Below, one piece after another: positions 2,667 to 62,340 of a DNA stretch of 64,000 nt. This DNA is from Naegleria gruberi (taxonomy: Eukaryota). The first letter of the stretch is position 1. Each line of letters starts with the position of its first letter. Location: assembly GCA_000004985.1 (NCBI GenBank), contig GG738857.1, one strand, 5' to 3'. The notes under the pieces are model-generated. The model was not told the DNA's origin and made no database searches. It saw only the letters and a program-made list of their open reading frames with translations. Made by a program: the position numbers and the translations under genes.

Positions 2667-3083
2667 TCCAAACCCAAACCCAAACCCAAACCCAAACCCA
2701 AACCCAAACCCAAACCCAAACCCAAACCCAAACCCAAACCCAAACCCAAACCCAAACCCAAACCCAAACCCAAACCCAAACCCAAACCCAAACCCAAACC
2801 CAAACCCTAACCCAAACCCAAACCCAAACCCAAACCCAAACCCAAACCCAAACCCAAACCCAAACCCAAACCCAACCCAAACCCAAACCCAAACCCAAAC
2901 CCAAACCCAAACCCAAACCCAAACCCAAACCCAAACCCAAACCCAAACCCAAACCCAAACCCAAACCCAAACCCAAACCCAAACCCAAACCCAAACCCAA
3001 ACCCAAACCCAAACCCAAACCCAAACCCAAACCCAAACCCAAACCCAACCCAAACCCAACCCAACCCAACCTAAACCCAACCA
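2667..3083. repeat. Second telomere-like (AAACCC)n tract, degenerating at its 3' edge (CCCTAACCC and CCCAACCC variants)
   Basis: Perfect hexamers start immediately after the gap. Variant units CTAACCC, AACCCAACC and CCTAAACCCAACC appear at 2808-3083 before unique sequence begins. Confidence 0.9.
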
Positions 3084-33003: not shown

Positions 33004-34422
33004 ATGTCATCACATCAACTGCCACACATCATCTCACTGTTCTCGATTATAATCCTCATCATATCTTCAATCCACTGCGAACAATTCGTCTTGGGTGGCT
33101 CATTCACCATGAAATCCAGAACATCAGACTCATCTGTCACCAATCACTTTATTAAAAATCTTGCACTGTACAATACAAAAAACAATGAACTGTCAGCATT
33201 TTATAATATCCCACCTGATGGCCCCATTAACGTAATTTATTATGAACCTCGTTGTGATATGATGTTTATCGGAGGAAAATTCACAACCATTGATGGAGTG
33301 AAAAGTGGACCCATTGCTGTGAAATTATTGGCGAGTAGTGGAGGAAACACAACTCAAAATCAGTGGCAATCGTTGGGTGTATTTGATAGAGATATATGTA
33401 TGGGGGAATGGTCGGATGGAGCTGAGATTATGGATATTGAATTGTACTTTTCAAATTTTGTAAAAAGTTGTCAACCAAGTATTGTAATGGTTGGTAAATT
33501 TACAAAGGCAGCTGGTATTAGAAATTTGAATAATATTGTCATGTTGGATACGAAGAGTTTGAAATGGGAAGTGTATGCTGGAGGAAATAATTTGAATGGA
33601 TCTTCGTTTAATGGAATTAGGGCAAATTCATTGAGAGCTGCTCTGTATCATGATGATTCGTATTTGTACGTTGGAGGTGATTTTGATGGATATTTCAAAA
33701 GATATAAGGATCAGAAATGGGAAACTCTTCTTCAGGGACAATTGGATGGTCCAGTAACTACCATTTCAATTCAGAATAATCATATTTATGAGGATATCAT
33801 TGTTGTGGGAGGTCAATTCACAGTTCCTAAGCAGTACATGTTTCTATTCAAGCCATCGAAGAGTGTTAATTATGTGAGACATTTTAAAAAACCAACCAAA
33901 TTGATTGCACCATCAGTTGAATTCCTAACTGCCAATCAGACAAGTAGGAGAGGTGTGAAACAACTTGTGGTGAGTGGAGATCAATTGTTTGCAGGTGGTG
34001 CTTTTTCACATGAATCTGCAACCAATGGAATTTACAATAATTATCTGAGTTTAACTATTGAGGGATATGTAGCAGCCTCTTCTGAAACTTTGAACACTGT
34101 CTTTGAGAATAGTACAGTGTCGTCAATGGGCAAGTGTAAACCTCCATATAGATCTTGTAAGAGAGGATCTGTGGCTATCATCAAGAGGGATTTTATTTAT
34201 TATCCTGAAGAGAAGGGATATTATTATGATCCAGATCTGACATTATGCATTCATAGATCAGTGAATGATATTGACCAATTTAAACTTGCTATTGAAGGTG
34301 AGGAAGATACTGTGAATGATGTCATGTTCTTACCTTATGCTGCATCGAATTGGATTCAATCATCCTTACTGCTAACAGTTTTTTGTTTAATGAATGCATT
34401 GACATTTATTTATACTATATAA
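33004..34422 (+). CDS. Secreted, probably GPI-anchored Kelch-like β-propeller protein (472 aa)
   Basis: N-terminal signal peptide 'MSSHQLPHIISLFSIIILIISSIHC'. Recurrent 'GGxF' blade motifs: 'FIGGKFTTIDG', 'YVGGDFDGYF', 'VVGGQFTV', 'FAGGAFSH'. The C-terminus is a short hydrophobic tail ending at the stop, a GPI-signal-like arrangement. Confidence 0.55.
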   Translation: MSSHQLPHIISLFSIIILIISSIHCEQFVLGGSFTMKSRTSDSSVTNHFIKNLALYNTKNNELSAFYNIPPDGPINVIYYEPRCDMMFIGGKFTTIDGVKSGPIAVKLLASSGGNTTQNQWQSLGVFDRDICMGEWSDGAEIMDIELYFSNFVKSCQPSIVMVGKFTKAAGIRNLNNIVMLDTKSLKWEVYAGGNNLNGSSFNGIRANSLRAALYHDDSYLYVGGDFDGYFKRYKDQKWETLLQGQLDGPVTTISIQNNHIYEDIIVVGGQFTVPKQYMFLFKPSKSVNYVRHFKKPTKLIAPSVEFLTANQTSRRGVKQLVVSGDQLFAGGAFSHESATNGIYNNYLSLTIEGYVAASSETLNTVFENSTVSSMGKCKPPYRSCKRGSVAIIKRDFIYYPEEKGYYYDPDLTLCIHRSVNDIDQFKLAIEGEEDTVNDVMFLPYAASNWIQSSLLLTVFCLMNALTFIYTI

Positions 34423-37400
34423 ACAACATTGGCTTCTTCCAATAATTGTTGTTGAAGAGTGTGAGCCTTATTGAATACTGTATATTCAGAGGTAAAGACA
34501 AATCTAGAGAAGGTATCACCAAGATTGATGAGAATTTGTCGATTCAAGTTTTCAAATGTTTCCTTCACAACCTTTTCTTCAATTTCTATAACTGGAACAG
34601 GAGCATTCTTTGTGGCAACCTTGATATCTTGATCAACAGCTTCAATATCCACAGAGAATAATTCATAAGATTCATTCTTTTTGATAATGCTCTTGTAGAG
34701 GAAGAGGAATGCATTTCTACATTTGGATGGAATATTGACTTCTGTTGGTGCATTCGTCTTGATATAATTGTTATAAATATACTTGGAGAACTTTGGAAGC
34801 CTTTCCAAGTCATTACTATCCAAGAATGATTTGTTTGTTTTGATATCAGTAAAAAGATAAATATTCTCCAATGAGAACTCCTTTTCACAGAAAACTTCAA
34901 AGAGTCCATAACCTTCCTCATTATCCAAAACGACGCTCATATCCTTGTTGATAATTTCATCATTGGATGATTGTCTATTTTCTGGCTCGCTAGCTCTTTC
35001 CGTGTTTCTGACCTTTCCTTTGATCTTGTAGTTTGCCAATACCAACAGAGCATAACCACCAAATGTTAACATGTAGGTGAACACGTACAAAACTTCAAAG
35101 ATGAATGAAACCATATCTGTAACGAGGGCTTTTTGGAACATTTCTTCAGATTGGAATCTGAATGATAAACTACTAAGACCAAGTACTTGATTGAAGAAGA
35201 GGAAAATAAAGCACAAAATGTAGAGCATCATTTCCATTCTGAAATAAAGAGGACCGTCCAATGAAATAAACCATGTATAGAGTTTCTTGAATGGATTTGT
35301 GTAATTTTTCTTAAAGTTAATGGTATTAACATCAAACTCAGATGTTGGCTCCTTACGTTTGCTTGATGCTCTTGCTACTCTTTCCTTTTCTTGTTTATGA
35401 GATCCTACAAAGTCAAATATGGTAACCAGAATAATCATTACACTAAATACAAATACTGTGGTTGTGTAGGAAATAGAAACAATGTAGGTGTAAGCTGCTG
35501 AGCTAATGGCTCCAGTTCTAACTAGGATGACCCATAATGTCCAATAGAGCAAATTGATGCCAGCAAAAACGCAAACAATGGTTACAAATAAAGCAGTAGA
35601 GGTGGTGTAACGAAGCATTTTGAATATTCTTTCGCTCTTCTTTTCGTCTCCTCTTGTCTTGGCAATTAATTGATACAAATATTTCATAAATTGGAATCTG
35701 AATACTTGTAATACATATGAAAGAATAGCCGTCAAATTGAGTGTGTTGACAAGAATAGCAACAATATTAGCAATCACATTAGCAGCTGTATCACCAGCTT
35801 CCCACATTTGAGAATTACCAGAGTAGAGTTGAGATACTAGAACACTTCTTTGGATGATATAAACCAAAACACTTTCAATGATCAAAGCAATCATACCCAA
35901 GTATGGAGTTCCCAAACGAGAGGAAATTGGTTGCTCCTTTCTAAAGATAATTAATAATGTTAGGATGATAGTAGACATTACAAAGTAAAAGATACCGAAT
36001 GCAATTTGAGCACTATACAATCCAGTTACTACCTGCTTAACAATTGGTGTCATCTCTATTGTTTTTTGTTCCAAGAATGTGGAGAACATTGTGGTGTGAG
36101 TACAGGCACAATCAATCATTTGAGTAGCAGGATTATAGCCCACCAATGTACATCCGTCTGTGCTCCAAGCTCCACTACGTTCGTCATAATATCTACATGC
36201 AAAGGTTGATGTATTGGAAGAATAATTGGAAACAGTAGACAAATCCAAGTTCAATTTGAAGGAGAGAATGATTGGAGTTGTCAAGTTAGCCAATGGTAAA
36301 ACGCTTCCCTCTTGTAAGAACTTGAAGTCATTAGCAATAGATGTGGAAGGAGTACTTTCAGTAAAGTTATTGGAGAATGGAAGATTTTGATAGGAAATTA
36401 AAGATGTACCAGCACTCTTTGAGAAACCATCATATTTGGCCAAGATACTGGATATGTCCATTCCAATAGAACTGTCTCCTGATGAGAGAGTTTGATTGCC
36501 TGATGTTGGTCCACTCAATTTGAAGCTAGAAATTGTAATATTGATGAGAGGAGTACTGATTGTTACGGCAGGAAGTTCAGAGGATGATGAGTCCAATACT
36601 GTTGGAACTTGAGAGAGTAAGACAAGTGCGGCCATCTTACTGGTAACCTCTGTCGTTTTATCAGCACCAACACCAGATTGCAGTAAGTTGCCTGAAATTT
36701 CAATTGCTGATTTAACATCATCTTGTGAAATTTTGGATCTAACGTATCCGTACTGCTCAATTTCCTTCTTGTATAAATCTGTAAGAGAATCAGCGAAACT
36801 ACTCATCTTGGTTGTTACTTGGTCAACTACCTTGTCATTAACCGAGTCAGAGGAAGAAGTTAAGGCTTGGAAACTTGACAAAGCAGTAGCAGGATTAGTT
36901 GGATCTATCTTAATGTTTTGGACAATTTGTGAAACCAAATCAGCGTTACCACCACTTCCAGAGGAAGCAACCAAATACGATTGATCGTATGAGGCCACTG
37001 TTACAGCCACTCCTGTTAATTCACCAATTCTAGATGATAATTGAGAAGATGTTCCATTAAATGCAGTTACATTTACAGAAAGAGTCTCAAGTAAATCACT
37101 ATTTCCAAGAGAATCTTTTACATAAACAAGTAATCCAAGAGATCCCACTGTTACTTTCTTGTCTGTACTAATATACGGCAAGTAGGTAGAAATTGTCAGA
37201 TTTGCAGAATACTCAGTCAATCTAATTTGTTTCAAAGAGGTTGGATCAGTAAACCCGATAGCATATTGCAAAGGTTGTAATTGCTCAGCTGCAGCCCACT
37301 GATTAAAGGTAATTGTGAAATAATCAGTGAGTGCATATCCTGATGTTCTATCCAAAGTTACCAAATCACCTTCTGGGGCAGAAGCAGCAGAAATAATTGG

Positions 37401-39891
37401 GATAGTTACAGAACCAGTCATATTCTTGTTAGCAGAATTGAAAATTGCTAAAGAAATAACAACATAAGAACTGCCTGAAATATAGTTGGTTGTACTCAAT
37501 GTAATTGCTGGGGTAAACAATAAGGAATTACCTTGACGTGTATAACCAGTAATAAGACCAGTTGATTTGAAAATATTAGTGAGAGTACTCTTGACCATCA
37601 TTGATACACTCCAAGAGAAAGTCAAGGAAGAAGAACAATTTCCTTCACATCCCAAGAATGATTGAACAATTGATTGATTCAATGCCACTTTAGAAACAAC
37701 AGCCTCAATAGCTTTTCCAGCAGCAAGTTGTTTTCCTACATAAACTGAAGGCAAACCAAAAATGTCCAATGAAGGAACATTTACATCAACAACCGGTACT
37801 ACCAAGACAGTCATATTAAATTTGACAGTGTTGGATACACGACTAGCAAAACCTTTTGGATTAGTATAGAAAACATTAGCCGAGAAAATGTACAAAGCAG
37901 GAGCCTTGAGTTCTGATGGATTAACCATAAGTATTCTATCATTAGTTTGGTTAAATGGAGTTGAAGTGTTTGTATTACCTTGGCAATTTTCACAAATCCA
38001 TTGGTAAACCAGATTGGAGCTGGCGAGAGAGGAAAATTCGTCTGATATTATTTCCAATGAAACAGAAGTAACATTTTGATAGTAAACTCCTGATGATTTT
38101 TTCAAAGAAATAACTAATGGATTGAGGTTGACGCTACAATCGGTAGAAGAGTATCCAGATTGACAGCTACATTCGTTATAAGAAATACAAGTACCCTTAG
38201 ATGAACAAACGTTGCTGGAATTAGATGAAACTGAGTTGCAAGTAGTGAGCTCGCATTTAGTTCCGAAATAGTTTGCATTACATGAACAGATATCATTACC
38301 AGTACATGTTCCCTTTCCATTACAAACAGAGGTGTTGTTAGAATTGATACCAAAACATTTTGTTACTGAACAAGATGGTCCAAACCAATTAGCTGTACAA
38401 TTACAGGTATTGTAGTCCAAACATTTACCATTTCCAGAACAGACTGTGGAGTTCAAATAATTGATTCCATAACAATTGAATTGTGAACATGTGGATCCGT
38501 AATAATTCTTTGAACAATTACAGTTGTTTGGAGAAACACATGAGCCCAATCCGCTACAAACATTGGATGAATTGAATTGAATATCATGGCAAGAGTAACT
38601 TTCACAGTTTGATCCATTGAAACCTGATTTACAGCTACAAATATTTGGCGCAATACAGGAACCATTGCTTGAACAAGCCAAAGAGGAATTAAAGTTGTAT
38701 CCAAAACATGAGAAGCTTTCACAATTAGATCCAGAATATCTTGAGGTACAGTTACATTTGTTTGGTTGAGTGCACGAGCCTCTTCCAGAACAAACATTCT
38801 TATCAGAATAGACGACTGAGTTACAATAATAAGTACCACAGTTTGATCCAGAGTATCCTGCAATGCAAGAACAATTATTTGGTGAAATACAACTTCCTTT
38901 TCCAGAACAAGCTAATGGATCAGAATAATCAAAACCAGAACATTGGTAAGTTTGACAATTGGTGCCATTATATCCAGAGAAACAAGTACAGTTGTTTGGA
39001 GAAGAACATACTCCAAAACCAGAACAAACTGAGGAACTATTCTTTGAAATATTAGAACAATTGTAATTTTCGCATTGTTGTCCATAGTATCCTGAATTAC
39101 ATGAGCAAATATCAGCTCCATTGCATTTACCATTACCAGAACAGACCTTAGAATCATTTGATAACAATCCATAGCATTGGAATTTTTCACAATTATTTCC
39201 ACCATATCCTGCAATGCAAGAACAATTATTTGGTGAAATACAACTTCCTTTTCCAGAACAAACTAATGGATCAGAATAATCAAAACCAGAACATTGATAA
39301 GTTTGACAATTGGTGCCATTGTATCCAGAGAAACAAGTGCAGTTGTTTGGAGAAGAACATACTCCAAAACCAGAACAAACTGAGGAACTATTCTTTGAAA
39401 TATTAGAACAATTGAAATTTTCGCATTGTTGTCCATAGTATCCTGAATTACATGAGCAAATCTCAGCACCATTGCATTTACCATTACCAGAACAAACCTT
39501 AGAATCGTTTGATAACAAACCAAAACATTGGAATTTGTCACAATCATCACCACCATATCCTACAATGCAAGAACAATTATTTGGTGAAACACAGCTTCCT
39601 TTTTCAGAACAAACTCCTGAATTGTTATAGAGTTTTCCATTACAATCATAATTTTCACACATGTTACCATAATAACCTGATTTACATGTGCAAACATTTG
39701 ATGAGGAGCAAACACCATTTCCAGAACATACACCAGTATTATTGTTGAACGTTCCATAACAGTAATAAGTCTGACAACTTTCTCCAGAGTATCCATTTTG
39801 ACAGGAACAATTATTTGGTTTAACACAAGCTCCCTTTCCTGAACATACAGATGAATCATTGTAATAAACGTTGTAACAATTATAATCAGAA
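34410..39891 (-). CDS. Adhesion-type GPCR with C-terminal RGS domain: EGF-like repeat ectodomain, GAIN/GPS, 7TM and RGS. Probably the 3' part of one gene together with 39560..41041.
   Basis: The 1750-aa ORF (34410..39662) stays open in the same frame up to the gap at 39892, and EGF-like repeats continue there ('...CSGKGACVKPNNCSCQNGYSGESCQTYYCYG...'). From N- to C-terminus: more than 20 six-cysteine EGF-like units; a GPS site 'CRYYDERSGAWSTDGCTLVGYNPATQMIDCACTHTTMFSTF' (C-x-C-x-H-T/T-x-F); seven hydrophobic helices; and an RGS box with 'EFSLENIYLF' and 'APTEVNIPSKCRNAFLF'. No signal peptide exists if the protein starts at Met 39662. Confidence 0.8.
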
Positions 39892-40042
39892 NNNNNNNNN
39901 NNNNNNNNNNNNNNNNNNNNNNNNNNNNNNNNNNNNNNNNNNNNNNNNNNNNNNNNNNNNNNNNNNNNNNNNNNNNNNNNNNNNNNNNNNNNNNNNNNNN
40001 NNNNNNNNNNNNNNNNNNNNNNNNNNNNNNNNNNNNNNNNNN
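39892..40042. other. Assembly gap (N run) inside the lectin-EGF-GPCR gene
   Basis: 151 N. Confidence 1.
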
Positions 40043-51831: not shown

Positions 51832-52929
51832 TTATTTAAGGTATGGAATAATGTTATCAATGAACCACTGCTCAGTGAATCGAAGATGATCACCATTGCT
51901 TTCTAAAAAGACCAATTTTCCTGCTTTATCCATTTCTTGTAAGCCAAGCCAATCCTCCTTGTAGAGTGGCGATTCTCTTAATGGAACGACACGTTTATCT
52001 TGTCCAGGTTGATAAAATTCAAATTGTTCAGATTCTATTGGTTGTACGAATGAGTCTTGCAAGAATTTCACCATTACAAATTTGTTCAAGCTCTTTAAAT
52101 TAATCTTGTAAGTTTCATTCTTAATTCTTCCATAATTATTAATGTCTGGAAGGAAAATACACTTATCAATATATTCCTGTTCATTGAAAGGATCATGCCA
52201 ATATTCTGCTTGAACAAGAGAATCTTGAACCCAACCCCAATAAACTCCAATATCCAACATTTCTCTTATATATTCGCAAACTGTATGATTGACTCCAATA
52301 CATTTAGGTAAGCCATAAACTCCTTGATGTTGTCCTCCAATACTGATCAAATTATTAACCTTTGGCAAATTGCATCTTTGAACAAAGGCTGCATTATTAA
52401 AATATCACAATAGGTCAGTAATTGGTTTACAATATAAAACAAACCTCTCAAAAATTGAGATCCTTGAGAGAATCCAATAGCATTAAATCCATCCTTCAAA
52501 TTAGGATCCTTCTTCAACATATCACAAGCCATTTGAACTTGTTTGTTGGCATTCATTAGATAACTATTCTCAACATCTTCCTCTATATTATTTCCAATTC
52601 TAATAGAATGAATATATGGTAAATTTGATGAATTAAATTGTGATCTAATCAGTGTTTCAATCTTTCCCATTGACTATTATTCCGATCCAATTAATAATTA
52701 AATTTATTAGAATTTGATCAACAACAATTGAATAATAACATACAAATGGAAAACAGCATGAATCACCCATACCATGCCACAATACAATTGGTTTAATACT
52801 ATCACTTGATGAAGCAGCAACTTGTTGTGATTTTGGATTGATACGAACCGATAATGATTCCACCTCCGTGCTGATCATGAACACACAAATCACAACCAAC
52901 AATACAAACATGAACCGCCTTTCCTTCAT
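51832..52929 (-). CDS. PPT1: Palmitoyl-protein thioesterase 1 (3 exons)
   Basis: The exons are 52929..52744, 52673..52445 and 52388..51832. The 70-bp intron (52674-52743) runs GTATGT...AG and the 56-bp intron (52389-52444) runs GT...AG. The spliced product carries 'PIVLWHGMGDSCCFPFSMG', 'GFSQGSQFLRAFVQRC', 'ISIGGQHQGVYGLP', 'VQAEYWHDP', 'FVMVKFLQDS' and 'FLESNGDHL'. It is collinear with PPT1, including the catalytic Ser (GFSQG), Asp and His. Confidence 0.9.
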
Positions 52930-53309
52930 TTTTCTATTTCTTGATTTAATTCTATTAAAAGATCACCTCATGATGATCAATAATAGTAACTATCAGCAAT
53001 CAAGCCTTTTATTGCAAATTTTTGTTCTAATAACTGAATGAGATTTCATTAAGCGAAAAGCAATAATTAATTCCTTGATGATATTTTTGTTTTTTAAATT
53101 TTAAAAAAAACAAACAAATATGATTATAAAGTAAAGCATTATTAAAATTTGCTCTTTTATTAAGGAAGTAATGTCAATGGGTCACTGAGAACAAGAGTGT
53201 CTGAATAACAGCAAAACTCCTCACCCAGACATTAATTTTAAGAAATCCATTCGTTCTGAACGTTATGAGAAAGGATATCTAATCCAAAAGTCCGTCACAC
53301 GAAAAGAAA

Positions 53310-55910
53310 ATGATTGGTTGTTTTCTTCGTCATCATCATGATGGATCATCTCTGCTGGTGATCCTTTCTGTGATGATAATTTCTTCATTATTAATAATTA
53401 TTAATTCATCTGATGCTGCAATAATTTCTCTGAATAATAATCAAACAATTAATCATCAACATCATAACCAACAACAAGAATATATTTCACAATTTTGGAT
53501 GAATAGTAATGTTATTCCTTCCTTATTACCTTCTCATAAATCAAGAGCCTCTCGTTTCTATTATTCCAATCATCATCAACAACAGCAAGAGAAAAAGGCT
53601 ATTAGAAATAATCATCATCATGAAATTGTGAAGGAGTTGCCAAGTGAAAAGAAGATTTACAAGGGATTTGCAACAATCGACTCACAAATCAGAGAAAATG
53701 TTTATTCAAAAGGGGCTGCAGCAACTTCACAAGATTTCCTTCTTCCACGACCAAAGATGTACTCTGGTATTCAAACAAAGGATTCGGATCCATTATACTT
53801 TGGTATTGCTTGGAATGAATATGATAATCAACAGTGGAATATCAAAGTGAGAGAAAATGTTTACACTGAAGATATTCAATTTAATTGTTTGAAAGTGGAA
53901 CGTGCTGATCCCTTGACATTCTCCAAGGTTATTGTTGTGGATCAATATTTGACCAATGTTCGTCTGAATATCACAACTGTAAAATATGGAGGTGTGAAGA
54001 ATAATGCATTTGCTGTGAAAATTACAGGTGAATCAATGTATGATCCAAGAAAGAAGGAGAAGGTTGATGATCACATTGCTGTTTATTTGTACACTGGTGT
54101 AACTAAGGGAGAGGTTTATGATATGAAGACTGATTCAAATGGACAATTGGTATTACAAGGAGTTGACGACAGTTCTTATGGTAGTTTTAGAATGAGAACT
54201 AGCTCTGTGAAGGGTGCCAATACAGAAAAAACCAAGTGGAGATATGATAATGCGCTTGAATCATTCTACTTTGTAAATGAAACTGACAGACCATATTATG
54301 CCAAGCAAATAATTACTGACACGATCAGCTCTGGAGTTGGAAATGACTATAACAATAATCCAGCCTGTTGTCAAAATGGTGGAAATCACTTTAATTTATT
54401 GCCAAATAAGAAAATGTCACAAAAGAGTAATATTGGTATTATTCAAAAGGTTCTTAAAACACCTTTCGAATGGGTTATTACCTTTGATAATCCTAATGCC
54501 AATCCTCTCACTGATCTTGAATCATCGCCTGCCTATATTGACCACCTCTATGAAAAGTACAAACAAGAGTTTGAACAAAAGTTTGATGATAGATTCCCTG
54601 TCACTAATTTCATTAATACAAATACTCAAAAAGCTTCTGCTCAAGATTACAGAGAGTTTGGTATGCAAGTTGTTAGCAGTTTAATGTTTGGATTGAGTTA
54701 TTTTGAAGGTTCAGGATATTTCAAGAATATGAGTGATCCAGCGAATCCAATTATTGTCATGAAGAATAGAAAATTATTATCTCTCATTCCCAACAAACAA
54801 TCCTTCCCTCGTCCATTCTATTGGGATGAAGCATTCATGGAAATGGTTCAAGTGAGATGGAATAGAGAAGTATTTGAAGAAGTAACTAGAAATTGGCATT
54901 TTGATGCAATTCTTGATGATATCACTGGATGGATCGATAGAGAACAATTTATTGGAGAAGAGGCTAGATACCAACAACCCCAATGGGCTTGGTATGGCTT
55001 ATCAAATCAAATGAATCCACCAGTTTACTTTATCACTTTGGAGAGATATTGCAGAATGTATGACAAGAATGTTGTTATTGATTATTTTAACAGAACTGGT
55101 CTCTTTGAAAGATTACAAAAGATCCTTGCTTGGTATTTGAAGAATCTTCAAGCTGCTGGAAGTGAAGAGTATACTTACAGATGGGGAGGAAGAGTTTTTG
55201 ATGTTTCTCTAGATAGTGGTCTTGATGATTATCCAAGATTTATGAAGGTTCTACCAGGAGAGAGCAATGTAGATCTTCAAGCATGGATTGCTAAAGCAGC
55301 TCAAGTTATGAGCGACTTGTCTCAAATGTTATCCAAGCCAAAAGATCTCATTGATTACTATGCCTCCATATCCAATATTATTTCCAAGAATTTACATGAT
55401 TTGTTCTGGAATGAATCAATTGGATTTTATGTTGACAGATCAAAAACTCTTGGATTTGCCAACCACATTGGATACATTGGAATGTTACCTGTTTGTCTTG
55501 GAATTGAAACTAACATGACTCGTGTGGAAAAAACAATTGAAAAAATGTCAAACTCTGACTATTTATGGTATGAAGAGGGTGGTATCATTTCTCTCTCCTA
55601 TGAAGATATTACATTTGAAAGATCAGGTCAGTATTGGAGAGGAGCATTGTGGGCACCTTTTCAATATCAATGTGCTAGAGGACTTGCCTTTTATGAGAAT
55701 AATTACAAGTTGAACTCTGCCAAAATAATGAGAAAGAAAATTCAAACTGCCTACGTTAACAATGTTGTAAAGCATTACCACGTTAATGATAATTCCATTG
55801 GTGCAATCTATGAGACATACCATCCAACTGATGGAAGAGGTTTCAATAATCATCCTTTCACTGGTTGGTCAGCTCTAGTTGTTTTATTAATGTCTGAGGA
55901 TTATCAATAA
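53310..55910 (+). CDS. Mannosyl-oligosaccharide glucosidase (glucosidase I, GH63), type-II membrane protein, 866 aa
   Basis: The N-terminal signal anchor is followed by the GH63 hallmark 'SFPRPFYWDEAFMEMV' (vertebrate 'FFPRGFLWDEGFH'). The C-terminal (α/α)6 region carries 'RWGGR...DDYPR'. Single uninterrupted ORF. Confidence 0.8.
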   Translation: MIGCFLRHHHDGSSLLVILSVMIISSLLIIINSSDAAIISLNNNQTINHQHHNQQQEYISQFWMNSNVIPSLLPSHKSRASRFYYSNHHQQQQEKKAIRNNHHHEIVKELPSEKKIYKGFATIDSQIRENVYSKGAAATSQDFLLPRPKMYSGIQTKDSDPLYFGIAWNEYDNQQWNIKVRENVYTEDIQFNCLKVERADPLTFSKVIVVDQYLTNVRLNITTVKYGGVKNNAFAVKITGESMYDPRKKEKVDDHIAVYLYTGVTKGEVYDMKTDSNGQLVLQGVDDSSYGSFRMRTSSVKGANTEKTKWRYDNALESFYFVNETDRPYYAKQIITDTISSGVGNDYNNNPACCQNGGNHFNLLPNKKMSQKSNIGIIQKVLKTPFEWVITFDNPNANPLTDLESSPAYIDHLYEKYKQEFEQKFDDRFPVTNFINTNTQKASAQDYREFGMQVVSSLMFGLSYFEGSGYFKNMSDPANPIIVMKNRKLLSLIPNKQSFPRPFYWDEAFMEMVQVRWNREVFEEVTRNWHFDAILDDITGWIDREQFIGEEARYQQPQWAWYGLSNQMNPPVYFITLERYCRMYDKNVVIDYFNRTGLFERLQKILAWYLKNLQAAGSEEYTYRWGGRVFDVSLDSGLDDYPRFMKVLPGESNVDLQAWIAKAAQVMSDLSQMLSKPKDLIDYYASISNIISKNLHDLFWNESIGFYVDRSKTLGFANHIGYIGMLPVCLGIETNMTRVEKTIEKMSNSDYLWYEEGGIISLSYEDITFERSGQYWRGALWAPFQYQCARGLAFYENNYKLNSAKIMRKKIQTAYVNNVVKHYHVNDNSIGAIYETYHPTDGRGFNNHPFTGWSALVVLLMSEDYQ

Positions 55911-57949: not shown

Positions 57950-58779
57950 TTCTACTTACGCACCACCACACATTTTTTTTATATTTGTTGTGTGAAAAGA
58001 TGGTTTTTTTCAGTTAGTACTGTTTTTGCTTAGTAGAACTTCATCTCTTTCCAAATATGAATTTTAACGCAAGTTCATTAAGGACTCTGTTTGACTATTG
58101 CATGAAACTTTATACTCAACCAAATATATATACAAATGAAAATGGTGATGTAAAAGTAATCAATCTGATAATTGTTGAACAACAACCTAAATGTTCTGAA
58201 AGCCAAAACCAAATCAATATATTGAATGATAATCATCAAAATTATTGCATTCAAAAACAATCACTGCAATATATAGAAAACAATCATTTGGTAATAGAGA
58301 AAGAAGACTCTCTTATACAATAATTGAGATGACACAAATTAAAGTTCACTGTTATCTGTGCTTTGATAAGAAAGGGTTTGCATTTTCGTATTTTTTGAAT
58401 TCCTCTTACTCCTTGCATGCACGTTATCCAAACACATATTGTTGTATGACCTTCCTTTTAAAGAATTTATACCGAATTTTGAATTAATTGCTATATTGGT
58501 ATATTGAATAGTTTTGGTGATGACCGAATTCATAAGATAATCAACACAAAATCATTGTAAACTACCAGCAGCACTGCATTCAGTCAATTTGTGCAATTTA
58601 TTAGAAATGAAACTCTTCTTCCTTTTGTCCCTTCCCTTTCGAATAACAATTTGGCAAAACGAAACAAATTTTGGCGATACCTCCAGTTCACTCATCAGAA
58701 GATTTCAACATGAAAAACTGACAATCTCTTTACAACCGTCTAAAACAGCAAAATAAATATTGTCGTTGAAGAATTTCAA

Positions 58780-60009
58780 ATGTTCCAGCACAAGTTCAGT
58801 ATTATTTTGAGTGACATTTGGCAGGACAGTGATGCATTCTTACAACCAAAGCATGTACCCACTTCCTTCAGAAAATCATCTAAAATCTTCTTGTGCTCTC
58901 ATTCTTCTTTATCAATAAACGAAACAGACGAATCTTGCCGATTTCACCCGATTTGCAATACAAAAAAAATGCTCAAGAATACACTCTCACTGCATCCATC
59001 AGTTTCCACCACCACAGAATTAATCTATTGCACTTCTCCCCCAACTCCAACTAGACCATTTTCACTTTCGTCCACACTTTCGTCTCCTTTATCCAACCAC
59101 CAAATTCCTTCCTCCAACACGACCATGAACAATATTCATACCAATAATAACAATAATCCATATCTTCACTTTCACAACAACACCATCAACAATACTTCCA
59201 TTCCATCTTCAAACTCTTCCAGCACCAGCTCAACTTCCACAACCTCTTCAACTACCATATTTAGCAGCAATCGATTTAGTTTCAATCTCACAAATCTCTT
59301 CACCACCTTCTTCACCTTGTTTCTCTTCAGTTGTTACTTTTTTTCAGTGACTTATCATTGGTTAAATTTATATCCAAATTCAGTTGGTTTTCCTTTGGGT
59401 TTAAAATTTTTATTTTTGAATCAGGAACCTGAGAATGTTTTTTCATTGATTGATCAGATGCAACAGTTTGGAAGGGATCATCAGAAAAGTTTGGATTTTA
59501 TTCATGTTTTTGTGACAATTCCACTTTTTACATGTTTTGTGTTGGGATTGTGGTTTGATTCGTTTTTGAGTTCAAATTCGAATCATTATTCGAATCATCA
59601 TAATTCATACCTGATGAAAATTGGTGTTTGTTTCATGATTGGATTGCAATTGTTACTGTCTTGGATGGAAAAGATAATGATTATGGTCTTGTTGGAGAAA
59701 CATCCATTCGATGTTCGAATCATTGGAAAGAATCCACTGATGAGAGCTGTGAAAGATGTTGAAATTTTAAATTTAACATCAAAAGCTTCATTCATATTGG
59801 GTTTCTTGTTGGTTTTGGGTGGATTCTTGTCTATTCATTATAAGAATAATCAACAGCAACAATATTCAGATTCGTCTAGTTTATTTAATCATTCATTAGC
59901 ATACGAAAGTGTCAATTCATCATCACAGAAGGGATCTAATTTTCTAAATTTTGCAAATACTAGATTTCGTTCTGCTAGTGCTCATCAACAGTACAAAGAT
60001 ATTCTCTAA
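58780..60009 (+). CDS. Low-complexity Ser/Thr/Asn-rich multi-TM protein (409 aa)
   Basis: Long Ser/Thr/Asn tracts are followed by at least 4 hydrophobic helices. Confidence 0.45.
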   Translation: MFQHKFSIILSDIWQDSDAFLQPKHVPTSFRKSSKIFLCSHSSLSINETDESCRFHPICNTKKMLKNTLSLHPSVSTTTELIYCTSPPTPTRPFSLSSTLSSPLSNHQIPSSNTTMNNIHTNNNNNPYLHFHNNTINNTSIPSSNSSSTSSTSTTSSTTIFSSNRFSFNLTNLFTTFFTLFLFSCYFFSVTYHWLNLYPNSVGFPLGLKFLFLNQEPENVFSLIDQMQQFGRDHQKSLDFIHVFVTIPLFTCFVLGLWFDSFLSSNSNHYSNHHNSYLMKIGVCFMIGLQLLLSWMEKIMIMVLLEKHPFDVRIIGKNPLMRAVKDVEILNLTSKASFILGFLLVLGGFLSIHYKNNQQQQYSDSSSLFNHSLAYESVNSSSQKGSNFLNFANTRFRSASAHQQYKDIL

Positions 60010-60459
60010 TTCTTCAGTTGCAACAAGAAGGTCATTTGGATTACTCGAGTTTCGAATAGATAGTTAACATGATTTCGGGAACAAGTGCATCATCAATTCT
60101 CACAATCTTCTAATTAATAGACCGACTCTTTGGAGGTTTACAAACATCGAGTTGCAACACCGATGTAACTTTCTAATAAAATTTAAATGATTATAATAGT
60201 CAATAATAATTGTATTTACAAAATCTTTGAAATTTACAGTTTTTTGTGGAGGTCACCAAATTAATCCATTAAAGATGTTGAATATTTGAATATTCGAATG
60301 TGGTATCCTATTCCTGTAGTTGATTTCACTTCGACTTTTTACACAAATATTTGTTTACAAAACTGCTAGAAAAGTATGATTTGGAATAATTGGTTATCAT
60401 GTACTGCTATGTTAAAAGTTTTATGGGAAGTTTACAATTCATCTCTCAAAAATCATAAA

Positions 60460-61011
60460 ATGTCAAATTCAAAAAACACAAACGAACAATCTGTTGGGAA
60501 CAGTCGGTGCAGGAACCATCGGAGCAACAGTTGCAGGAGCCACGACCTATGTAGGTGTGCCACTCGTTGTTTCATCATTGGGTTTTGGATCGGGTGGAGT
60601 GGTGGCTGGAACGACAGCAGCTGGCATGATGAGTGCTGCAGGAAATGTGGCTGCTGGTAGTTTGGTGGCTGGATTGCAGTCAGTTGGTGCTACAGGTAAG
60701 TTTAAATTATTTGTTTGTTTGATTGATTGAATTTGTTTGAATTATATAATTGGGTTGACGAATTTCGATTTGGATGAATAGGAGCTGTGGCTCTTGGAAC
60801 GACTGTTTTGCCAGTTACATTGGTGGTTGGTGCTGGAGTGGCAGTTGGATATCATTATTGGAATAAGAAGGGTGACAACACATCATCATCAACAACAATT
60901 GATGAAAATAAGACAAATGAAGAGAATGATAAGTTTGGTGGATCAACCAATGAAGAGAATGATAATAGTAATAATGGAAATTCGAGCAAACCATGGTGGA
61001 AAGTATGGTAA
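60460..61011 (+). CDS. IFI6/IFI27 (ISG12)-family small membrane protein, 2 exons, with apparent +1 frameshift just after the ATG
   Basis: 'GVVAGTTAAGMMSAAGNVAAGSLVAGLQSVGATG' matches the Ifi-6-16 signature ([40 protein letters not shown]). The 86-bp intron, 60696-60781, runs GTAAGT...AG. The only ATG (60460, 'MSNSKN...') is offset by +1 from the domain frame, and an A6 run (60471-60476) lies between them. Confidence 0.6.
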
Positions 61012-61167: not shown

Positions 61168-62157
61168 TTATAGGATAAACAATAGGAAGAATTCAGAAAG
61201 TGACAACAAGTTATTTCTCATCTTGGGGAAATAAATATTTCCCATCTTTTCACTTGCTAAAATGTCAGGCTTATTGAGGAATTGTTTCATGAGATCTACG
61301 TCTTGTTTACTGAATTTTTCATCTTCAGTTCTTTGTAGAGCTTGTTCAATGGCTGATTGAATAACGGATTTTTGAAATTCATTTGCAAAACTTATTTGAA
61401 TTGGAAATCTTTGGAATGGAACTTCAAATAGAATGGAAGATTCATTACAATAATTTGCTAATTGTACGAATATTTCAATTAAACTTTCAGTGTCCATGTA
61501 CTTGATGATGAGAACATCGTGTTCTTGTGTTGAATGACCTTTGAACCATTGCCAGACATCCATTTCACTAATTGGAATCATTTTCATTGGAAGAAGAATA
61601 TTGGAAAAGTCTTCCTTGGCCTTTTCCATATATTCTATTGCTTTCGAATATTCCAATCTTCTATTATTGAACTCGTTCAATGTCTTGACATTGGAACAAT
61701 ACAATTTTTTCGACAATTCACTATGAATACCATATCCAAAACAATCATAACTTGGATAAATTGAAAATAATGTTTTGTACAATCCAGGTTGTCTAATAAT
61801 CTTTCCATCACATTTTCTATGAATAATAATTGGTAAATATTTCATTTCCAACTGATTGTCCAATGTTAATTCCTTCGGATTGTTTCCAAATAGCTTTAAC
61901 GAATCAAAAGCAGCACTTGTTATTGCATCATACTTTCCACACCATGAACTATTCCAAAATTGTTTAAATTGACGATTAGGATTTAATCTCTTCATCATAT
62001 TTTCTGTAGAATTATTGGATTGTTGTTGTTGTTCATTTACTGATGATAGAATAGTTGTTGTAGAAAATGATCGGAAATTCTTGATCAAGAAAAATTGATT
62101 GGAAAAAAATTGATTTTTCGAGAGATGAGAAAATGGGAGGGGTCTGAGTTTTTGCAT
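61168..62157 (-). CDS. Hypothetical protein (329 aa), possible mitochondrial presequence
   Basis: Clean ORF. The N-terminus is 'MQKLRPLPFSHLSKNQFF...RSFSTTTILSS', Arg/Ser/Phe-rich with no acidic residues. Confidence 0.5.
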   Translation of the reverse strand: MQKLRPLPFSHLSKNQFFSNQFFLIKNFRSFSTTTILSSVNEQQQQSNNSTENMMKRLNPNRQFKQFWNSSWCGKYDAITSAAFDSLKLFGNNPKELTLDNQLEMKYLPIIIHRKCDGKIIRQPGLYKTLFSIYPSYDCFGYGIHSELSKKLYCSNVKTLNEFNNRRLEYSKAIEYMEKAKEDFSNILLPMKMIPISEMDVWQWFKGHSTQEHDVLIIKYMDTESLIEIFVQLANYCNESSILFEVPFQRFPIQISFANEFQKSVIQSAIEQALQRTEDEKFSKQDVDLMKQFLNKPDILASEKMGNIYFPKMRNNLLSLSEFFLLFIL

Positions 62158-62266: not shown

Positions 62267-62340
62267 TGCCTCCCTTGGGAATCGAACCCAAGACCTCTGT
62301 CTTACTAGGACAGCGCTACTGCCAACTGAGCTAGGAAGGC
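62267..62340 (-). tRNA. tRNA-Thr (anticodon AGU)
   Basis: The reverse complement reads GCCTTCCTAGCTCAGTTGGCAGTAGCGCTGTCCTAGTAAGACAGAGGTCTTGGGTTCGATTCCCAAGGGAGGCA. It has a 7-bp acceptor stem with one G-U pair, an anticodon stem CTGTC/GACAG around loop CTAGTAA, a T-arm TTGGG/CCCAA with a TTCGATT loop, and discriminator A. Confidence 0.9.

Follow-up and report, generated by a model that had tools for sequence, protein, structure and literature searches.

The stretch of Naegleria gruberi DNA analysed here (a window of 64,000 nucleotides) contains, close to its right-hand end, a short Gly/Ala-rich gene resembling the interferon-inducible Ifi-6-16 family, preceded by an ATG that lies one base out of register with it. 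Where, then, does translation of this gene begin, and is the disagreement in frame a property of the organism, of the assembly or of the gene model? The initial annotation offered a homopolymer sequencing error, a recent frameshift or translation through an upstream exon, and these three options proved to be the right set. The features that bear on the question are collected in Table 1, along with the introns of the window that were validated independently.

Table 1. Features at and around the ISG12-family gene, and validated introns of the window (window coordinates).
Feature	Position	Strand	Remarks
Upstream ORF, multi-pass membrane-protein gene	58780..60009	+	409 aa; own stop 60007-60009
Intron of the public model	59909..60503	+	595 nt; donor aaa/GTGTCA, acceptor gggaacAG/tc; coordinates reproduced exactly
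TAA closing the domain frame (frame 2) upstream	60413..60415	+	
Start codon, probable true start of the stand-alone gene (cataaaATGtca)	60460..60462	+	Frame 1
A6 homopolymer, likeliest site of a one-base excess between ATG frame and domain frame	60471..60476	+	
Exon 1	60460..60695	+	Frame-1 leader up to the A run, then frame 2
Phase-1 spliceosomal intron	60696..60781	+	86 nt, GTAAGTTT...GAATAG, 24% G+C; donor GTAAGT; validated by ORF junction and continued Pfam match
Exon 2	60782..61011	+	Third hydrophobic helix (AVALGTTVLPVTLVVGAGVAVGYHYW), Asn/Glu/Ser-rich tail, stop TAA 61009-61011
Validated intron	donor 29199	+	GTGAGT, 42 nt; kinase APE motif restored, Pkinase profile 3-256
Validated intron	donor 44630	+	GTAAGT, 53 nt; ORF junction
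Validated intron	donor 18349	-	GTAAGT, 46 nt; ORF junction
Validated intron	donor 18040	-	GTAAGT, 48 nt; ORF junction
Validated intron	donor 14185	-	GTAAGT, 38 nt; ORF junction
Validated intron	donor 52743	-	GTATGT, 70 nt; palmitoyl-protein thioesterase gene
Validated intron	donor 52444	-	GTTTGT, 56 nt (52444-52389); palmitoyl-protein thioesterase gene

A direct check of the sequence places the ATG at 60460 in frame 1 (position modulo 3 equal to 1), with the codons TCA AAT TCA AAA AAC directly after it, and the Gly/Ala-rich ORF in frame 2, open from the TAA at 60413 to the GTAAGT donor at 60696. The positions originally given for the ATG, the A run and the stop were all verified. The accompanying statement that the domain frame is devoid of ATG codons holds only up to the domain itself: none occurs in frame 2 between the TAA and the domain, but the same frame contains two further on, at 60626 and 60629. 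These form the Met-Met conserved in the family motif ('MMS'); lying in the middle of the domain (residues 56-57 of 154), they are excluded as the natural start.

The part of exon 1 that is read in frame 2 encodes the first transmembrane helix and the core motif GFGSGGVVAGTTAAGMMSAAGNVAAGSLVAGLQSVGATG, and ends with the first base of a Gly codon that the intron splits. The intron that follows has canonical GTAAGT...TAG borders, with a donor fitting the GTNNGT pattern of all eight validated introns of the window, and once it is spliced out the frame is open and the Pfam match extends into exon 2, the tail of which ends in KPWWKVW; the 86-nt intron (60696-60781) and the C-terminal exon reaching to 61011 are thus present just as first described. 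The predicted effect of deleting one A was confirmed as well, the outcome being a stop-free protein of 154 residues (MSNSKTQTNNLLGTVGAG...KPWWKVW), with SNSKTQTNNLLGTVGAGTIGATVAGATTYV as a predicted peptide of the frame-2 product when it is started at 60460. The frame is restored by any single-nucleotide deletion between the ATG and approximately 60503 (about 60463-60503), an interval in which the A6 run is the sole slippage-prone stretch. Apart from this one-base lesion, there is no further stop or frameshift in the gene.

The resemblance to Ifi-6-16 proteins stood up to a profile search. The corrected protein matches the Pfam family PF06140 (Ifi-6-16) with 51.5 bits against a gathering cut-off of 29.1 (E = 9.7e-14), the match covering profile positions 2-74 of 84 and residues 22-89 of the protein. 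A phmmer search of the PDB gives a significant but modest match to human IFI27L1 (2LOQ_A, E = 9.9e-4, query residues 17-82 against chain residues 20-90). In an alignment of 11 sequences comprising named animal, fungal and amoebozoan members, all 16 invariant columns, as well as five near-invariant ones, are present in the Naegleria sequence. Judged by its sequence, the predicted product of the locus is a member of the Ifi-6-16/ISG12 family.

The reference for the ISG12 or FAM14 family (IFI27, IFI27L1, IFI6) is Parker and Porter (2004, BMC Genomics 5:8). The Naegleria protein has in common with human IFI27, IFI27L1 and IFI6 its small size (under the corrected model), hydrophobic helices rich in Gly and Ala, and the motif GF-x-x-G-[IV]-x-AG-[ST]-x-AA...AGS-x-x-A-x-LQS-[IV]-GA-x-G; it differs from them in its long Asn/Glu/Ser-rich C-terminal tail. 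The term 'interferon-inducible' is also inapplicable to it, its host having no interferon system: we know of no interferon pathway in Naegleria, and induction by interferon gives the family its name without being a criterion of membership outside vertebrates. The product would be a protein of about 154 residues, beginning with a short polar leader, continuing through three hydrophobic helices rich in Gly and Ala and closing with a tail rich in Asn and Glu; its hydrophobic Gly/Ala-rich composition suggests an integral membrane protein of the two-to-four-helix kind expected in the family. By analogy with the animal members IFI27, IFI6 and IFI27L1, it may be a small integral protein of an organelle membrane, the Gly/Ala helices of which would pack together or oligomerise.

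The ATG at 60460 has the surroundings of a genuine start codon. The three positions preceding the start (-1, -2 and -3) are occupied by A in 14 to 16 of the 17 long ORFs of the window, a pattern to which this ATG conforms, and its second codon specifies Ser, as in four of the 17. It lies 34 nt upstream of the first hydrophobic helix and places 21 residues before the Pfam domain, against a median of 22 in 120 family members; the median length of these members is 142 aa, compared with 154 for the corrected model. Outside the ORFs of the window, 17% of positions have, within 45 nt, an open ATG in the frame reached by a one-nucleotide deletion, and 0.25% have such an ATG with an intervening homopolymer of at least six. 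The combination of an out-of-frame ATG with a homopolymer thus exceeds chance. As a general observation, start codons of the 17 long ORFs are often preceded by an A-run (AAAAAAAATG), a feature that could help in choosing N. gruberi starts.

Our preferred reading, to which we assign a probability of about 0.45, is tentatively that of a stand-alone gene in which the extra base is an assembly error or the state of one haplotype. The locus would be a two-exon ISG12-family gene with translation expected to start at the ATG at 60460, which would be one base out of register with the gene body, most likely through one extra A in the A6 run. That base could have arisen as a consensus or base-calling error of the draft, or could be carried by one haplotype, and the organism would still make the protein. 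The scaffold is a draft with N gaps. Against an error, the assembly is presumably Sanger-based, and a miscounted run of six A is, we assume, uncommon in Sanger data. Naegleria has been described as a heterozygous diploid (PMC9928731). Exact-product look-ups (window ORFs, N. gruberi proteins) found no independent assembly or transcript on record. The same sequence is expected from an error, from a heterozygous allele and from a recent mutation that has become fixed, and we prefer an error or a one-haplotype state to a fixed mutation solely because the gene is otherwise intact.

The closest competitor, unlikely as we judge it, is a young pseudogene, in which the extra A is real on all NEG-M copies, the protein has been lost and the lesion is very recent. 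Such a gene would match the sequence exactly as assembled, from which translation starting at 60460 yields a 66-residue off-frame peptide, and the A run would fit a mutation too, homopolymers being mutational as well as sequencing hot spots. The gene also appears to be dispensable or lineage-restricted (no other heterolobosean homologue is found among the approximately 25 named of 121 family matches), and it has no paralogue within the 64-kb window. Against decay speak the approximately 140 remaining codons, both splice sites and all the invariant residues, every one of them intact; the pseudogenising event would therefore have to be very recent. With the rest of the gene in this state, the lesion is non-biological or very recent.

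A different solution has been adopted by the public annotation. The gene is already represented, on the same contig, by a protein of 453 residues (XP_002679426.1 / EFC46682.1 / UniProt D2V8H0, D2V8H0_NAEGR / NAEGRDRAFT_78995), which is tagged PF06140 and the Ifi-6-16 domain of which scores 51.3 bits. It was retrieved at 93% identity by an exhaustive phmmer search with the translation of exon 1. A word-indexed protein search missed it, although about 145 residues are identical between model and query; such an index apparently copes badly with low-complexity Gly/Ala queries, and absence from its results is not absence of annotation.

This public model could be rebuilt exactly from the window with exons 58969-59908, 60504-60695 and 60782-61011. 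The last two exons are identical to the corresponding parts of the corrected gene, whereas the N-terminal 313 residues come from the upstream ORF, and neither the leader nor the five residues opening helix 1 (LLGTV) are included. The upstream ORF is entered at the Met at 58969 (context acaaaaaaaATG) rather than at its first Met at 58780. A Pfam search assigned this ORF to no family, and a word-index search with the public model returned no orthologue of it, only the model itself. The ATG at 60460 and the A run fall inside the model's 595-nt intron; if there are two genes, the same segment runs from the last part of the upstream gene across the spacer between the genes into the 5' end of the ISG12-family gene.

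Whether the public model is credible depends on that intron, and we compared it with the introns of the window that could be validated without selecting on their donors, namely by junctions between long ORFs with blocked read-through and by Pfam continuity (n = 8; Table 1). All eight validated donors read GTNNGT (GTAAGT five times, GTGAGT, GTATGT and GTTTGT once each), and the introns are 38 to 86 nt long. The GTGTCA donor of the public model lacks both the G at +5 and the T at +6 that are seen in all of them, and scores -7.6 bits on a position weight matrix, compared with 5.4 to 13.1 bits (leave-one-out) for the validated donors, a matrix built from only eight sites of one 64-kb window, so that other parts of the genome may have introns that are longer or weaker. 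Among the 74 GT sites between 58969 and 60503 it comes 64th, and 91% of the GT dinucleotides of the whole window equal or exceed its score. Its length of 595 nt is 7 to 15 times that of every validated intron of the window. The segment does have GT...AG borders and does preserve the frame, but 819 combinations of ATG, GT and AG keep the frame in 58700-60540, and the existence of one of them therefore carries no weight. A literature search found no paper giving a splice consensus for Naegleria. Judged by its donor and its length, 59909-60503 is probably not a real intron.

Two of the reference introns belong to a palmitoyl-protein thioesterase gene of three exons (51835-52962, minus strand), the spliced product of which matches Pfam Palm_thioest over its entire length (positions 1-254 of 254, 291 bits). 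The GTTTGT donor of its second intron indicates that N. gruberi tolerates T at +3 and +4 and keeps the G at +5 and the T at +6.

An alternative ATG-bearing upstream exon was also sought over 1.8 kb, and no in-frame join with a consensus-like donor was obtained: a GTAAG, GTGAG or GTATG donor occurs in none of the 819 in-frame combinations. The upstream-exon option of the initial annotation is thus the one that was deposited, with an intron that is poor in both donor and length. Given this poor intron and the lack of a consensus-like alternative, the evidence favours a homopolymer error or a recent frameshift.

The deposited fusion, which would splice an N-terminal membrane module of four helices (58969-59908) to the ISG12 domain and leave the ATG at 60460 and the A run intronic and irrelevant, is in our estimation improbable. 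It is the sole model that provides an uninterrupted, ATG-started ORF from the sequence as it stands, it respects the GT-AG rule, and long N-terminal extensions do exist in some family members (11 of 129 exceed 300 aa, for example Blastocladiella P0066 with 414 aa). Apart from the intron itself, however, it faces several difficulties. At least 200 residues precede the domain in only two of 120 members, and the public model has about 315. The fusion would make an intron out of a segment that holds a start codon in ideal context, in a configuration met at 0.25% of positions, and would discard the natural stop of the upstream ORF together with its coding-like 33-codon tail, the codon usage of which scores +6.6 bits against a coding mean of 7.5 (weak evidence, as 7-20% of stop-free non-coding windows reach this score). 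No homologue of the fusion architecture was found when the public model was used as a word-index query, which returned only the model itself.

The public 453-aa protein is thus probably a chimera of two genes. Under the stand-alone reading, it could be explained as a rescue by the gene predictor, which, finding no in-frame ATG, would have joined the strongly coding Gly/Ala exon to the upstream gene by the first frame-compatible GT...AG pair. The entry (D2V8H0 / XP_002679426.1) deserves a curation flag as a probable chimera of two unrelated membrane-protein genes, since it could mislead surveys of ISG12 domain architectures or of Naegleria orthology. What is new here is only this probable mis-annotation and the one-base lesion behind it.

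It is very unlikely that the six A are real and that the protein is made by recoding (ribosomes shifting by +1, or the polymerase slipping, on the A run) or by unconventional initiation at a near-cognate frame-2 codon (CTG at 60491 or TTG at 60494), the latter two codons lying downstream of a strong AUG. The intact remainder of the gene would be in keeping with recoding; the Lys-tRNA on AAA 60472-60474 can find a perfect match again one base further on, and TCA AAA AAC (60469-60477) formally constitutes an A_AAA_AAC slippery heptamer in register with the ATG at 60460. A -1 shift on this heptamer, however, leads into a frame other than that of the domain, with a stop after about 25 codons, which rules out -1 frameshifting, and the heptamer looks coincidental. 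The shift needed is +1, which normally requires a slow or stop codon in the A site; the next codon here is AAC, a common one. Transcriptional slippage and the sliding of ribosomes have mostly been described on A runs of more than six. There is no stimulatory RNA structure in 60478-60570, which folds at -21 kcal/mol against a mean of -24.8 for shuffled sequences (z = +1.13), 181 of 200 shuffles folding at least as well. We likewise see only a slim chance that every haplotype and the mRNA truly carry A6 and that the protein is nonetheless made, by +1 recoding on UCA-AAA-AAC or as a true fusion. If true, the former would mean that a heterolobosean uses a cellular +1 frameshift; the latter would give the family a new domain architecture, by way of an intron of exceptional length whose donor departs from the consensus.

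The occurrence of Ifi-6-16 homologues outside animals and plants had been put forward as worthy of note, a point that does not survive as a novelty. The exhaustive phmmer search yielded 121 family proteins, and the approximately 25 that are named include, besides fungi (chytrid, mucoromycete, glomeromycete, basidiomycete and blastocladiomycete) and testate amoebae (Difflugia, Pyxidicula), animals such as turtles, a sea cucumber and an ostracod; the Naegleria gene itself, moreover, already bears the PF06140 tag. The fungal and amoebozoan homologues (Terramyces, Entomortierella, Atractiella, Cetraspora and Blastocladiella; Difflugia and Pyxidicula) are 42-51% identical to the corrected protein over an aligned overlap that is essentially the core domain, as measured on the 11-sequence alignment, which includes six of the seven. 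Most are 90-210 aa long and, like the corrected protein, have a short leader ahead of the first helix. None is a close orthologue, the best non-self match having an E-value of 5e-9 and 50% identity. Members of the family were already known in fungi, Amoebozoa and animals, and the presence of the ISG12 fold in Discoba fits this broad eukaryotic spread and leaves the picture unchanged. A literature search found no paper linking Naegleria with Ifi-6-16.

Among the approximately 25 named of the 121 matches, there is no second heterolobosean homologue, and naming of this fraction is too thin a basis for claiming a patchy distribution. No orthologue from another Naegleria or heterolobosean was recovered by protein searches, by a metagenome scan or at the N. 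lovaniensis locus, and metagenome scans with the Ifi protein and with the upstream ORF, together with a scan of viral contigs, detected no relatives. The N. lovaniensis locus (PYSW02000006.1, 698875-721675) is a region of 22.8 kb around the orthologue of the GH63 glucosidase gene, which in our window lies at 53310-55910 and is 100% identical to NAEGRDRAFT_57460. At a tblastn threshold of E <= 1e-3, this region has no match to the ISG12-family protein or to five nearby ORFs of the window, including all three flanking ones. It follows that the two Naegleria species apparently do not share the gene order around the ISG12-family gene, unless these genes evolve too quickly to be detected.

On its downstream side, a minus-strand ORF (61168-62157) converges on the ISG12-family gene, and a tRNA-Thr(AGT) gene on the same minus strand (62267-62340) lies about 110 nt upstream of the start codon of that ORF at 62157. 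A much longer minus-strand ORF at 34410-39662 encodes 1750 residues with EGF/teneurin-type repeats and an RGS domain at the end; it contains near-identical stretches 351 nt apart and has an assembly gap upstream, with N from near 39892. An apparent second frameshift at 39560-39662, considered as a control on assembly quality, turned out to be an artefact of the N gap and the ORF listing, the frame of the EGF repeats being continuous. In all, the window contains 3730 N. At its opposite end, an (AAACCC)x55 repeat occupies positions 1-331 and a (CCAAAC)x70 block lies about 2.3 kb further in, at 2668-3080, N gaps separating and following the two. The start of the window is the end of the scaffold, with a telomere-type TTTGGG/CCCAAA repeat, and the internal block may be a mis-join or a subtelomeric copy.
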